From: Candidatus Borrarchaeum weybense
Lineage (GTDB): Archaea; Asgardarchaeota; Sifarchaeia; Borrarchaeales; Borrarchaeaceae
Direction: 5' to 3'
Length of the DNA: 64,000 nucleotides
NCBI GenBank assembly: GCA_019057385.1
Contig: JAHQJS010000006.1
Span: 452,938 to 516,937 of the forward strand
Part shown: piece after piece, positions 11,928 through 49,844 of the stretch
How the letters are laid out: every line of letters begins with the position of its first letter
Numbering within the stretch: position 1 is the stretch's first letter
The notes under the pieces: generated by a model
Database searches by the model: none
What the model saw: the letters and a program-made list of their open reading frames with translations, nothing else
Told to the model about the DNA's origin: nothing
Position numbers and translations under genes: made by a program

Positions 11928-11978
11928 AGCAGAAAAGTTTCTGAGTTGTTGTTAAACTCAAAGTATTTAAAAGAAAAA

Positions 11979-12102
11979 TGGCGGCTCCCGAGCGGATTTT
12001 CGTATTCATTTTTGAATTTTACAAATATATCGAACCGCAAGCCCTCATCGAGCTACCGGGTTTGAAGCCCGGTGCGCGAGACCACTCGTGCTTTCGGGAG
12101 CC
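11979..12102 (-). tRNA. selC: tRNA-Sec (anticodon UCA) with 32-nt BHB intron in the T-loop (intron 11997-12028)
   Basis: 9-bp acceptor GGCTCCCGA/TCGGGAGCC, G discriminator plus CCA, long D-stem, anticodon arm CCGGG-CTTCAAA-CCCGG, long variable arm, 4-bp T-stem GCGG/CCGC; BHB helix TTCG/CGAA with bulges ATA and AAT. Confidence 0.95.
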
Positions 12103-12213
12103 GACTGAACTATCTACTTAAGTATAATTCTCTATATTTGACTCTCATTATAAATGGGTCTTTTCATCTCTTAAAAAATAAGCTGTTTGTATTCTTTTTT
12201 AAGATGGTTTTCT

Positions 12214-19280: not shown

Positions 19281-20642
19281 ATGCGACATAAACTTGTAAC
19301 TTTCCTAAAAGAGCATAAATATCCATTAATTGAAATCAAAGATCTTGCCATAAGAATTTTAAAATGGCTGGTATTAGCTAGTATTATTGGTTTTTCTGTT
19401 GGCCTAGTTACGGTACTTTTCCAAATTGGCTTAGTTGAAGCCATCTCAAATCTTACCTCGATAAAATTAATATGGCTACTTTTTTTTCTTCCTCCCTTAG
19501 GATTGTTTCTTAGTGGACTTTTGACAGGATACATCGCACCAGAAGCGAGAGGTCATGGAACAGATGCCATTATTGGGGCTTATCACGAACAGACAATAAC
19601 TCGACTTAGAGTTATCTTCGCAAAACTTATTGCGAGTATAATTACCATCGCTTTTGGTGGCTCAGCAGGACGCGAAGGTCCAGCGATCCAAATGGGGGGT
19701 GGAGTCAGTACGAATACAGGGAAAGCAATGGGTGTCAGTTTTGCTGATAGGAAAATCCTTACCCTATGTGGTATGAGCGCTGCGTTTTCAAGCGTTTTTA
19801 TTTCTCCTCTTTCAGGCGCGCTTTTCTCATGTGAAGTTGTGTTTAGAGATGACATCGAATATCATGGTTTACTCCCTGCAGCAGTTTCAAGTATTGTCGG
19901 TTTCCTTACGTATCAAGCGCTACTTCCAGAACAATTAAGTGAGGAATTGATCTTTGTGAGGATTCCAGCGTATACTTTTGAGCCATTCCATATTCTTTAT
20001 TTTTTGGTGTTAGCAGTATGCTGCGGCCTTGTAGGTTTTTTGCATATCAAAGTTTTATATTTTCTTGATGAACTATTTTTAAAGTGGGATCGTCCCGAAT
20101 ATATGAGAACTATGGTAGGTGGTGTATTAACAAGCCTTATAGCCTTAGCGTTGTGTATAGCAAGTATACTCCTCAATCTCGATTTTTCTGAGGGCTTTCG
20201 TATTTATGGCCTTGGCTGGAGTACCGTGAACTTACTAATAGACTCTCCATTTTTTTTCCCGCTCCTATTCTTGATATTCTTGTTAATTGCAAAAATGTTA
20301 GCCACAGCATCTACCATTGGTTCTGGTGGGTCAGGAGGTATTGTCTCTCCATCTCTATTTATCGGTGCGATTCTAGGTCTAATAATTGGTCTTATGTTGA
20401 ATTTTAATCCTCAGGTTATGGCTATTATAGGTGCTGTATGCCTTTTCGCTGCTATTGCACATATTCCCATCACTGGAGCCCTCCTGTGTGGTGAATTATT
20501 TAGTTTTCAATATGTGATTCCTGCTATCCTCGTAGGTGTTATAGGCTCATGGATTGCTTCAGAGGACAGCATTTACAGAAGTACTCTCATTAGCAGAAGA
20601 AAACCTTTAAAAGTCGCTCATAAATATCGCATAATCAAGTGA
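19281..20642 (+). CDS. CLC-family chloride channel/antiporter
   Basis: GHGTD, GSAGREGP, GGSGGIVSPSLFIGA. Confidence 0.92.
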   Translation: MRHKLVTFLKEHKYPLIEIKDLAIRILKWLVLASIIGFSVGLVTVLFQIGLVEAISNLTSIKLIWLLFFLPPLGLFLSGLLTGYIAPEARGHGTDAIIGAYHEQTITRLRVIFAKLIASIITIAFGGSAGREGPAIQMGGGVSTNTGKAMGVSFADRKILTLCGMSAAFSSVFISPLSGALFSCEVVFRDDIEYHGLLPAAVSSIVGFLTYQALLPEQLSEELIFVRIPAYTFEPFHILYFLVLAVCCGLVGFLHIKVLYFLDELFLKWDRPEYMRTMVGGVLTSLIALALCIASILLNLDFSEGFRIYGLGWSTVNLLIDSPFFFPLLFLIFLLIAKMLATASTIGSGGSGGIVSPSLFIGAILGLIIGLMLNFNPQVMAIIGAVCLFAAIAHIPITGALLCGELFSFQYVIPAILVGVIGSWIASEDSIYRSTLISRRKPLKVAHKYRIIK

Positions 20643-44575: not shown

Positions 44576-44603
44576 TGATAATTAAAGAGAGAGGCTAAAA
44601 CAA

Positions 44604-47030
44604 ATGGGTAAAAAAACGGGCGTATATCTCTGTCAATGTGGAGGGAACATTTCTGATGTCGTTGATGTGGATAAAGTAGCTGAGCTACTTGAAAATGAGG
44701 ATACAGAACTAATAGAAATACAGCGGTATTTGTGTAGCGAACCTTCAATAGAGACCATGAAAAGAGCTATTGAAGAGAAAGGACTTGATAGACTTGTATT
44801 AGCTTGCTGTACTCCGAAAATGCACTTGAAGAAATTTCAGAGAGTACTCAAAGAAGCTGGTATAAATCCAGCACTTGTTGATGTTGTGAATGTTAGAGAA
44901 CATTGTAGTTGGGTTCATGAGCACGATCCTGAGGGTGCAACGTTAAAAGCCACTGATCTTGTTCGCGGAGGAATTAAAAGAATTGAAAAATCAGTGCCTC
45001 TCGAAACAAAAGAAATCGATGTTACTCCAAAAGTTTTAGTCATTGGAGGAGGAATAGCAGGAATTATAGCCTCTCTTCGTGTGGCAGAGAATGGAATTGA
45101 TGTATATCTAGTCGAAAAAGAGCCCAGCATTGGAGGACATATGATACAATACCCCAAAGTGTTTCCGACTTTAGATTGCTCGCAGTGTATCTTAACTCCC
45201 AAGTTAGGGGATGTAAACGATCAAGAACTTGTTCAACTATTAACATTGGCAGAATTGAAGGATATCTCGGGATATACTGGAAATTTAAAGGCAACAATTA
45301 GGCAAAACCCTCGCTATATTAATGTTGATAAGTGTACTGCATGTGGGGACTGCGCTAGCGTATGTCCTATTTTACTCCCTAGTGAATTCAACCTAGGTTT
45401 GGGAAAAAGAAAAGCCGCTTATCGACCTTTCCTACAGGCGGTCCCGCAAGCTTTTACAATCGATGAAAATAATTGTCTCTATTTTAAGTACGGAATTTGT
45501 CGTACCTGTGAAAAACTATGCCCTGCTGAAGCAGTCGAGTTTAATCAAGAACCTCTTGAAAAGACCTTAGAAGTCGGCGCTATAATCTTAGCAACAGGCT
45601 ATGATCTATATGACCCAAGTGCTTTGGGAAGATACCTCTACGGCAAACATCCAAACATCCTTACGTCACTACAAATGGAACGAATGTTGGATATCACAGG
45701 ACCAACAACCAGCCGAGTTGTTCGTCCGAGCGATGGAAAAAGTGTAAAAAAGGTTGCTTTCGTGCTTTGCGCCGGATCACGAAATAATGAAGCAGGTGCA
45801 AATAAAGATGAAGGAGTTCCATATTGCTCTACTGTATGCTGTCTCTATGCTCAGAAACAAGCTATACTTCTGCGAAAACTCGGTATTGATGTATGGATTC
45901 ACTACATCGACATTCGATCACCAGGAACAAAATATGAAGACTTTTATCATCACACTCAAGAATTAGGAGTCAAATTCGTTAAAGGCAAGGTATCTGAAGT
46001 TATGCCGACTCCCAATAATGATGGAAGACTCATAGTCCGTGCCGAAGACATGCTTATTAATAGGATGATAGAAAATGAAGTAGACCTTGTAGTGCTGTGT
46101 CCGCCAATTTTACCAAGCAAAGGTACGGAGGAGTTGGCACAGAAATTAAAGATTCCACTAAATGAGTATAAATTCATTTTAGAAAGCCATCCGAAACTTG
46201 ATCCTTTAGCAACCAAACGGGAGGGGATTTACGCAGCAGGAATAGCAACAGGTCCAAAAGATATACAGACCACAGTTTCTGAAGCCGAAGGAGCAGCCAT
46301 GAAGGCTGTGAATTTTGTAAGCGCGAAAAAGGAAATCGATCCCAATAAAGCGTATGTTATACCTGAAATATGCACTGGCTGTAGAGAATGTATTGAAATT
46401 TGTCCAGAAGAGGCGATTACAATTATAGACGAAAAAGCAACGATCAATGATCTTGCTTGTACAGGTTGTGGACTATGTATTCCAATATGTCCAGAGAATG
46501 CTATTGATATGCAATCATATTCTGAGGAACAATTACTCGCGCAGATTAAAGGGACACTAGTAGGTTCAAAGGCTGAACTGAAAATCTTGGTGTTCGTGGA
46601 AAAAGAACTTGTATATACGGCGGCAGACATTGCAGGTGTTTCTAGACTAACATATCCTAGCAGTACTAGGTTCATAACACTTCCAAGTAATGCGCGACTG
46701 AAACTTTCATATATCCTCTACGCTTTCGCGAATGGAGCAGATGGTATTATGTTTTTAGAGGCGCCTGAAGAAGAAGGACCTGTTCCAGAAGCACATAAGG
46801 CTGCAGAAAAAATAATTGAGGAATATCAAGAAGTACTTGAGGACGACTATGATCTTGATAGCTCGAGACTATGGTTTAGTCGAATTTTTGTTCCTGATTG
46901 GCGAAAACTTGCAACTGTTTTTGATTCGTTCCATCAAATGATCGAGGATCTCGGTCCTCTAACTGAAGAAGAACGTGGAAAATTAATGCAGGCTTGGTCT
47001 AAGGGGAAGAAATTACCCCAAGTTCAATGA
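44604..47030 (+). CDS. hdrA: HdrA with C-terminal Cys-less MvhD-like domain
   Basis: CQCG, CCTP, REHCSWVH, FPTLDCSQC, ferredoxin motifs; tail YTAADIAGVSRLTYP..AFANGADG. Confidence 0.9.
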   Translation: MGKKTGVYLCQCGGNISDVVDVDKVAELLENEDTELIEIQRYLCSEPSIETMKRAIEEKGLDRLVLACCTPKMHLKKFQRVLKEAGINPALVDVVNVREHCSWVHEHDPEGATLKATDLVRGGIKRIEKSVPLETKEIDVTPKVLVIGGGIAGIIASLRVAENGIDVYLVEKEPSIGGHMIQYPKVFPTLDCSQCILTPKLGDVNDQELVQLLTLAELKDISGYTGNLKATIRQNPRYINVDKCTACGDCASVCPILLPSEFNLGLGKRKAAYRPFLQAVPQAFTIDENNCLYFKYGICRTCEKLCPAEAVEFNQEPLEKTLEVGAIILATGYDLYDPSALGRYLYGKHPNILTSLQMERMLDITGPTTSRVVRPSDGKSVKKVAFVLCAGSRNNEAGANKDEGVPYCSTVCCLYAQKQAILLRKLGIDVWIHYIDIRSPGTKYEDFYHHTQELGVKFVKGKVSEVMPTPNNDGRLIVRAEDMLINRMIENEVDLVVLCPPILPSKGTEELAQKLKIPLNEYKFILESHPKLDPLATKREGIYAAGIATGPKDIQTTVSEAEGAAMKAVNFVSAKKEIDPNKAYVIPEICTGCRECIEICPEEAITIIDEKATINDLACTGCGLCIPICPENAIDMQSYSEEQLLAQIKGTLVGSKAELKILVFVEKELVYTAADIAGVSRLTYPSSTRFITLPSNARLKLSYILYAFANGADGIMFLEAPEEEGPVPEAHKAAEKIIEEYQEVLEDDYDLDSSRLWFSRIFVPDWRKLATVFDSFHQMIEDLGPLTEEERGKLMQAWSKGKKLPQVQ

Positions 47031-48262
47031 AATGCAGTTTCTTCATCAGCGATTTTGAAATCTACTGTTTCATCAGCGCTTATAGAGAATAATAGCAGGC
47101 CAGCGAAGGGTAGAATAGCCATAATAAACATCATCATAGCGAGACCAAGAAGTTCAGCAAGGAATCCAGCTATAAGTGGTCCAATCGTAGCACCAATTCC
47201 TAAACTCGTCATAATAAGCCCCATTCCTTCTCCTCTCTTCTCTCTCGGGGCAACATCTGCAACAATGGTTGTAGCGGAGACCATAACTGATGCATAACCG
47301 AAAGCAACAAGAACCTGAGATGGGATTAATGCAACAGGTGTGGTTGAGAGCCCAAACCAAATCGCACTAAGTCCACTAGCCAAAAGCCCCATTATCATTA
47401 CTGGTCTTCGTCCAATTCGGTCGCAACCGAGTCCCATCACGAACATGAATATCGCTTGTGTCCCCATATTGAGTGCATAAAGTAATCCAACCTGTGCTGG
47501 TGTCCCGCCCACAGCGATTACATACAAAGGGAATAAACTATACAGACCCAGCAGTCCTCCATGGCGGAGTATGAGCGTAATATAAACAGTTGATAGTCCA
47601 CGTTTTCGAACAAATTCATCCTTTTTAAACATCACTGTAAATCTTCGCTTCAGATCATTAACTACCTTTTTAAGGTTTGCAGGTTCATTACTGGGATTTG
47701 CTTGTGTTTCTAAGGCCTTGAAATCTGAAAAAACAAAGATAACAATACATGCTGCAAGAAATGTAACAAAAGCAGCTGCAATGAAAGGAAACGATAAAGA
47801 AAACAATTCAACCAGAAAACCGCTTGCAAGGGCGCCAACAAACCATCCTGATGAGAGTGCGGCGTTCATTATGCCCATGCCACTGCCTCTCTTTTTACCA
47901 TTTAGGTTTGAAGCGATAGCCAATGCTATAGGAGTAAAAGCACCAAATGCTATACCTCTGATTAAACTCAGACCAATAAGTTCGTATACATTTCTTGAGA
48001 AGAAATAGCCTACAAGTGTAAATCCTGAAGCAAAAAGACCGCCCATCAAGAAAGGTCTTCTTTTTCGAAGAGTATCGCTAAGAGATCCCCATATTACAGT
48101 GAATAAGAGATAAGTAAGAAAAAATGACGAAAACAAAATGCTAATTTCGATAAGATTAGCCCCTAACTGTTCCGCGTACAAAGGAAGCACCGGCGGGACA
48201 ATCATATACGCAAAATAAGCAAAAAAGGCAGTAAAGTAAAGCGGTATCAGTTCTCTTCTCAT
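47024..48262 (-). CDS. MFS transporter
   Basis: 12 TM; GSLSDTLRKRRP and GCDRIGRRP motif A. Confidence 0.9.
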   Translation of the reverse strand: MRRELIPLYFTAFFAYFAYMIVPPVLPLYAEQLGANLIEISILFSSFFLTYLLFTVIWGSLSDTLRKRRPFLMGGLFASGFTLVGYFFSRNVYELIGLSLIRGIAFGAFTPIALAIASNLNGKKRGSGMGIMNAALSSGWFVGALASGFLVELFSLSFPFIAAAFVTFLAACIVIFVFSDFKALETQANPSNEPANLKKVVNDLKRRFTVMFKKDEFVRKRGLSTVYITLILRHGGLLGLYSLFPLYVIAVGGTPAQVGLLYALNMGTQAIFMFVMGLGCDRIGRRPVMIMGLLASGLSAIWFGLSTTPVALIPSQVLVAFGYASVMVSATTIVADVAPREKRGEGMGLIMTSLGIGATIGPLIAGFLAELLGLAMMMFIMAILPFAGLLLFSISADETVDFKIADEETAFH

Positions 48263-49508: not shown

Positions 49509-49844
49509 CTATTTTTGGATGTATAATTGTTTCGTCAAACCGCGGACATCGACTATAACCTTTTCAGGAAGGAATGCCTGCACTTTAGGATCCATATAGA
49601 TGGAAAGTTTGCTGACTTTTCCAATAAGAGAAAGTCGATTATTTGTTTTTGTATCCTTTTCTGGAACAAGGGCAACTTCTGGGGTGGCTGTACAGGTTTT
49701 AGATCACTTTCCCGAGACATTGAGCCAGAATACCAATGCAAGGTTACCGCTTTTCCGCAGTTTGTCTGAGAGCCATTTTCTAGCCTTCTGAGACAGACTT
49801 ATCTTTAAGGAAACCACCTCTTCTTTTTTACGTTTCAGTTTCAT
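49509..49844 (-). CDS. HesB-like / CC-Se-motif-like selenoprotein (Sec codon 47 at 49704-49706)
   Basis: 111-aa frame with one internal TGA: KISLSQKARKWL..VSGK-U-SKTCTATPEV..SIYMDPKV; downstream SECIS; tRNA-Sec in window. Confidence 0.75.

Follow-up and report, generated by a model that had tools for sequence, protein, structure and literature searches.

We analysed a 64-kb window, meaning the whole 64,000-nt stretch of DNA, from the genome of Candidatus Borrarchaeum (Sifarchaeia, Asgard). This genome (G000) spans 4.18 Mb and is rated 100% complete with 7% contamination. The minus strand of the window, read from 12102 to 11979, holds a locus that gives a 92-nt tRNA with the anticodon UCA once 32 bases are removed (Table 1). 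The acceptor stem pairs GGCUCCCGA with UCGGGAGCC in nine perfect pairs (12094-12102 with 11983-11991), and a two-base linker separates it from the D arm. The D stem, GCACGAG/CUCGCGC, has seven positions, comprising six Watson-Crick pairs and one A.C mismatch at the third pair, and it is closed by the loop UGGU. The anticodon arm has a 6-bp stem (ACCGGG/CCCGGU) and a 7-nt loop (CUUCAAA) in which UCA occupies 12063-12065, the variable arm has a 5-nt loop on a 5-bp stem, and the T stem pairs GCGG with CCGC (4 bp). The discriminator is a G at 11982, and CCA is encoded at 11979-11981. Removal of the intron restores the T-loop UUCGAUU, with the splice junction falling between GGUUCGAU and UCCGC. The locus shows the features of archaeal tRNA-Sec, namely UCA in a 7-nt loop on a 6-bp stem, a 9/4 fold (13 pairs) with G73, and a long D stem combined with a 4-nt D-loop and a long variable arm. 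The minimum-energy structure of the spliced RNA was exactly the 9/4 cloverleaf, at -49.7 kcal/mol. An earlier note on this DNA had described an intron-containing gene with anticodon UCA, a 9/4 fold, an encoded CCA and a restored T-loop UUCGAUU; every listed item was present at the locus, and the coordinates, the junction and the intron length of 32 nt were all exact, the strand being minus.

Table 1. Coordinates of the tRNA-Sec locus and of the other features discussed. Plain numbers are window positions; other locations carry a genome, contig or locus name.
Feature	Location	Strand	Remarks
Exon 1 of tRNA-Sec	12029..12102	-	5' acceptor strand, D arm, anticodon arm, variable arm, 5' T-stem strand, T-loop bases 54-59 (UUCGAU)
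32-nt BHB intron, T-loop position 59/60	11997..12028	-	Fold, junction and R1 alignment
Exon 2 of tRNA-Sec	11979..11996	-	U60, CCGC (3' T-stem strand), UCGGGAGCC (3' acceptor strand), discriminator G, CCA
TATA-like box AATTATAC	12122..12129	-	20-27 nt 5' of tRNA base 1; putative promoter element (sequence reading)
T-rich run TTTTTCTTTT	11969..11978	-	Directly 3' of CCA; putative archaeal termination signal (sequence reading)
111-codon frame	49509-49844	-	One in-frame TGA (GKUSKTC)
PSTK-like gene and EFsec/SelB, adjacent	G000:C7:282080-283794	+	PSTK-like gene directly upstream of EFsec, 186 bits (below the NCBIfam equivalog cut-off of 290.5); EFsec/SelB 286 bits
SepSecS	G000		490 bits
SelD	G000		One in-frame TGA
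EndA, two genes	G000		PF01974, 99 and 77 bits
RtcB	G000		PF01139, 582 bits
tRNA genes with 59/60 intron (examples)	G000 C3:98852-99025, C4:332411-332545, C4:332584-332718		
tRNA genes with 59/60 intron (further examples)	G000 C5:184757-184954, C5:191572-191705, C8:121901-122036		
Peroxiredoxin gene	L160:9097-9661 = G000:C4 ~583596-584160	-	In-frame TGA at the peroxidatic Cys (FYPADFTFIUPTE)
Decayed tRNA-Sec copy	G000:C4:584461-584607 = L160:9962-10108	+	Outside the window
Fur/PerR-family gene	L160:10152-10628		Starts 44 nt downstream of the decayed copy
tRNA, anticodon CUA	G000:C7:143743-143811	-	tRNA-Pyl-like

The motif GAATTAT was also found upstream of tRNA-Sec in two other genomes (G004 and G002) and upstream of a decayed copy on contig C4. 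Pfam searches of the ten flanking ORFs identified a HEAT-repeat protein, a polyprenyl synthetase, a cupin, an M48 peptidase, a malic enzyme and a GHMP kinase, and did not place EFsec near the tRNA-Sec gene. Neither of the two genes that flank it contained a nuclease-like Pfam domain.

The structure that the earlier note had called a perfect BHB in the T-loop proved to be a strict motif, with two 3-nt bulges, a 4-bp central helix and both flanking helices. The T stem serves as the outer helix, the central helix pairs UUCG with CGAA (12031-12034 with 11999-12002), and the inner helix has 7 bp including two G.U pairs (12021-12027 with 12003-12009). The 5' bulge, AUA (12028-12030), separates the central helix from the intron-internal helix, the 3' bulge, AAU (11996-11998), separates it from the T stem, and in each the cut site follows the second base. 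The BHB conformer had an energy of -52.0 kcal/mol and the predicted minimum-energy fold of the precursor -52.7 kcal/mol, 0.7 kcal/mol apart. The precursor fold gave z = -4.99, and none of 200 shuffles was equally stable. As modelled, the insert is a strict canonical hBHBh' intron. A box C/D RNA within the intron was rejected: at 32 nt the intron is too small for one, and neither a C box (RUGAUGA) nor a D box (CUGA) was seen by eye.

Ordinary searches overlook the gene. ARAGORN returned 0 genes for the whole window and no tRNA on the unspliced locus in intron mode or with lowered thresholds, and Rfam at the gathering threshold returned 0 matches for the whole window. On the unspliced locus the Rfam tRNA-Sec model (RF01852) reached 23.6 bits, against a gathering threshold of 47, with a wrong alignment. 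With the intron removed, ARAGORN reported tRNA-SeC(tca). Exon 1 alone gave a 3'-truncated match to RF01852 covering model positions 1-77 (31.7 bits, E 2.9e-5). We also built a covariance model, R1, on 32 distinct tRNA-Sec genes that lack introns and belong to other Asgard lineages, none of them from the Borrarchaeum genus. The R1 alignment showed covariation along the 9/4 cloverleaf, with 18 pairs changed on both sides and 96.4% of cells paired, compared with 32-57% when the partners were slid. R1 matched 11979-12102 over its full length (77.7 bits, E 5.6e-15), placing a single insertion of 33 nt in the T-loop, and this was the sole match in the 64-kb window and in the whole 4.18-Mb genome. 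Intron-free orthologues of another family scored 60-64 bits on the Rfam tRNA-Sec model and aligned with the window gene column for column except for the insert. These results bore out both the tRNA-Sec identity given in the earlier note and its remark that standard tRNA finders often miss such genes.

We compared the gene with its orthologues in genomes of the same genus. The exons were identical at 92 of 92 positions in G004 and G001, whereas the intron was 87.5% and 65.6% identical, respectively, and the 150-nt flanks 57-98%. An identical exon 1 was present at a contig end in a fourth same-genus genome. Because the exons are identical in these genomes while the insert and flanks vary, selection acts on the exons and the BHB and not on the sequence of the insert. 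The orthologous intron in G001 has 31 nt (L011:1501-1623); its central helix and 3' bulge are unchanged, and its 5' bulge can be drawn either with 2 nt or with 3 nt that face an unpaired A. Since this is not a clean 3-nt bulge, the strict BHB is not universally kept. The G004 copy was identical to the sequence from Candidatus Borrarchaeum yapensis, and tRNA-Sec was not found in G003 and G005, which are 69% and 80% complete. An exact-pattern scan of public genomes gave at least 78 (approximately) Asgard tRNA-Sec genes, some rows being redundant and the counts being those of a sample. Among the matches listed, at least 48 were intron-free and at least 22 had an intron at the same 59/60 site, many of the latter with a D-arm intron as well. 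CCA is encoded in the window gene and in nearly all Asgard tRNA-Sec genes among the matches listed. Three findings uphold the intron reading: a strict BHB, a drifting intron between invariant exons, and the same junction in intron-free orthologues.

A search of G000 for TTCRA combined with a T stem and an acceptor stem, with no BHB required, showed that about 17 further tRNA genes carry an insert of 26-32 nt at 59/60. They have the same BHB design as tRNA-Sec, most of them carry further introns, and the genes are 102-225 nt long. The base opposite position 57 covaries, G57 being matched by C in 5 genes and A57 by U in 11. As about 17 other tRNA genes are interrupted at this site, the tRNA-Sec intron is one of a genome-wide class. 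Position 59/60 is a routine intron site in G000, common to about 18 tRNA genes, and the tRNA-Sec intron appears to need no special handling. ARAGORN found 17 intron-free tRNAs in G000 and Rfam gave 26 tRNA matches; so few tRNAs seen by these programs in a 100%-complete genome is in keeping with the high intron load reported from other Asgard classes (PMC11291895).

Two side observations concern the tRNAs of this genome. Contig C1 (179 kb) has a GC content of 39.0%, against 36.1-37.9% for the other contigs, and carries 13 of the 26 Rfam tRNA matches. Its tRNAs are mostly about 70-83 nt and intron-free, several of them standing in tight arrays (19435-19896, 74513-74748 and 161784-161929), and it also has a second RtcB, matched in two pieces. 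This contig may represent viral, mobile or contaminating DNA. On contig C7, the tRNA with anticodon CUA has the compact build of tRNA-Pyl, its anticodon stem being 6 bp long, its variable loop 3 nt and its D-loop small; it fits the pyrrolysine system published for Sifarchaeia (PMC9723677).

The extra 32 nt could also be retained, giving a mature tRNA-Sec with an enlarged T-loop, that is, an 'unusual insertion' in the sense of Sun et al. 2021 (PMC9723677). That study reports a 6-bp D stem, 'unusual insertions and deletions' in all Sifarchaeia tRNA-Sec and lengths of 86-142 nt for Asgard tRNA-Sec, and its main text does not contain the word intron. The extra bases of the window gene, however, lie exactly between the two 3-nt bulges of a strict BHB, and their removal restores the invariant 7-nt T-loop of the 32 distinct intron-free orthologues. 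The insert changes between genomes in which the exons do not, some 17 ordinary tRNA genes of G000 share the arrangement with a covarying central helix, and EndA and RtcB are both encoded. We consider retention extremely improbable, and excision of the insert as an intron is the reading that we prefer.

For this excision, G000 encodes two EndA paralogues, at C4:663429-664055 and C5:195817-196488, and RtcB (Table 1). Inspection by eye showed that one paralogue retains the Tyr/His/Lys triad and the other is without the His, and the pairing of one intact with one His-less sequence suggests a heteromeric EndA. Heteromeric enzymes of this kind are known to accept non-canonical and relaxed motifs. 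The earlier note held that EndA handles non-canonical intron positions here, which is supported by the two paralogues, RtcB and the roughly 17 further tRNA introns at 59/60. Components for Sec synthesis and delivery were also identified, the PSTK-like gene being the weakest of the four.

We propose the following pathway. The gene would be transcribed into a precursor of about 124 nt, in which U54-G57 would pair with CGAA close to the intron's 3' end and, together with the T stem and the intron-internal helix, form the strict BHB predicted in silico. EndA would cut both 3-nt bulges, and RtcB would join the halves and so restore the T-loop. The mature 9/4 tRNA would first receive Ser, PSTK would phosphorylate it and SepSecS would then carry out the conversion with selenophosphate from SelD, and EFsec would deliver the Sec-tRNA to UGA codons of selenoprotein mRNAs. 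Intron excision, the mature 5' and 3' ends and the charging of tRNA-Sec are steps that we infer from the sequence and from known pathways.

G000 also contains the decayed tRNA-Sec copy on contig C4. Similarity reaches about 35 nt upstream of this copy; within it, the 5' acceptor strand and the D arm are 94% identical, and both the variable arm and the T-loop intron are still present. The core of its anticodon stem-loop has been replaced by 42 nt, 6 of the 9 acceptor pairs are left and the T stem is broken. Because the intron is retained, the duplication took place at the DNA level. A second functional tRNA-Sec with another intron layout was rejected for this site, as its acceptor and T stems are broken, it has no anticodon arm, R1 does not match it and its fold gives z = +0.60. 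When the C4 copy was used as a query in four same-genus genomes, matches were found only at the true tRNA-Sec locus (none in G003).

The C4 copy shows that tRNA-Sec duplicates do decay in this genome, and the genome estimate includes 7% contamination; both speak for a reading in which the window locus is itself a non-functional pseudogene, Sec decoding being carried out by another gene or lost. The locus is nevertheless the only R1 match in the whole genome, all of its stems are intact, and three to four genomes of the genus have identical exons. Such a tRNA is required by the complete Sec machinery and by the SelD and peroxiredoxin genes with their UGA codons, and the true pseudogene on C4, with its damaged acceptor and T stems, replaced anticodon arm, missing R1 match and positive z, looks quite different. 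That the locus is a pseudogene is scarcely credible. We conclude with high confidence that, in the Candidatus Borrarchaeum genome, it alone is a functional tRNA-Sec(UCA) gene, with an intron that EndA and RtcB would splice as proposed above.

The surroundings of the C4 copy raise a separate point. A Fur/PerR-family gene begins just downstream of it, and the peroxiredoxin gene is divergent from it. The syntenic site was not found in G004, where the Fur homologue (55% identity) stands in a different context. The copy might have been captured as a promoter or leader of the Fur/PerR-family regulator and not be inert debris, which we regard as very unlikely; if true, such promoter capture would tie a peroxide-stress unit to tRNA-Sec transcription signals. 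As for the window gene itself, nothing suggests more than an ordinary intron-bearing tRNA-Sec.

The earlier note took the tRNA as an anchor for UGA recoding across the whole window. This holds with one caveat: the tRNA and the machinery make recoding possible, but individual in-frame TGAs are not thereby validated. The HdrA-like frame at 44586-47297 (+) was rejected as a selenoprotein, since the tail after its TGA at 47028 resembles non-coding, low-complexity sequence, so that this TGA looks like a plain stop. The peroxiredoxin gene on C4, with its TGA at the peroxidatic Cys, is likely to encode a Sec-peroxiredoxin. A further frame with one in-frame TGA (GKUSKTC) was noted on the minus strand of the window (Table 1).

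The value of finding the tRNA-Sec gene is mainly practical, and it opens no new question. Because ARAGORN and Rfam both miss the gene, the genome would appear to be without tRNA-Sec. If the gene is not recognised, the UGA-containing SelD and peroxiredoxin genes and the candidates in the window would be annotated as truncated.

A tRNA-Sec with a T-loop intron is of a kind known from publications on related archaea, and in G000 it is nothing out of the ordinary. A 31-nt T-loop intron was described in Lokiarchaeota tRNA-Sec (Mariotti et al. 2016, PMC4989117), which confirms the earlier note's statement that T-arm introns are reported there; the same intron is cited as the sole archaeal example by Santesmasses et al. 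2017 (PMC5330540) and by a 2022 review. The Lokiarchaeota and Borrarchaeum tRNAs are alike in the UCA anticodon, G discriminator, 9/4 fold, 4-nt D-loop, long variable arm and single T-loop intron of about 31 nt, and both genes escape ordinary tRNA finders. They differ in that Borrarchaeum belongs to another Asgard class (Sifarchaeia), its intron has 32 nt and its D stem has only 6 Watson-Crick pairs, owing to the A.C mismatch. EFsec lies about 6 kb from tRNA-Sec in Lokiarchaeota, whereas in Borrarchaeum it is on another contig beside PSTK.

Non-canonical BHB introns are known from Thermoproteales and from Atabeyarchaeia and Freyarchaeia (Valentin-Alvarado et al. 2024, PMC11291895); that paper puts the share of interrupted tRNA genes in some Asgard genomes at 92-95%. 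These introns are short, lie outside 37/38 and are recognised by structure and not by position, as in Borrarchaeum, which adds one lineage to those with such introns, and nothing essential is different. A published gene from Sifarchaeia is that of Sun et al. 2021 (PMC9723677), who treat Borrarchaeota as synonymous with Sifarchaeia, detected tRNA-Sec in this class and drew one from a Ca. Borrarchaeum MAG (their Fig. 3c). By a note in that paper, and by the match of G004 to Ca. Borrarchaeum yapensis, that tRNA comes from the same genus as the window gene; compared by description, it likewise has a 6-bp D stem and extra sequence. Sun et al. speak of 'unusual insertions' and unusually long tRNAs, whereas the extra 32 nt of the window gene are a strict BHB intron at 59/60. 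Our results make a small addition to that account, in that the 'insertion' of Borrarchaeum tRNA-Sec is explained as a standard BHB intron at 59/60, which replaces the description 'unusual insertions' for Sifarchaeia.
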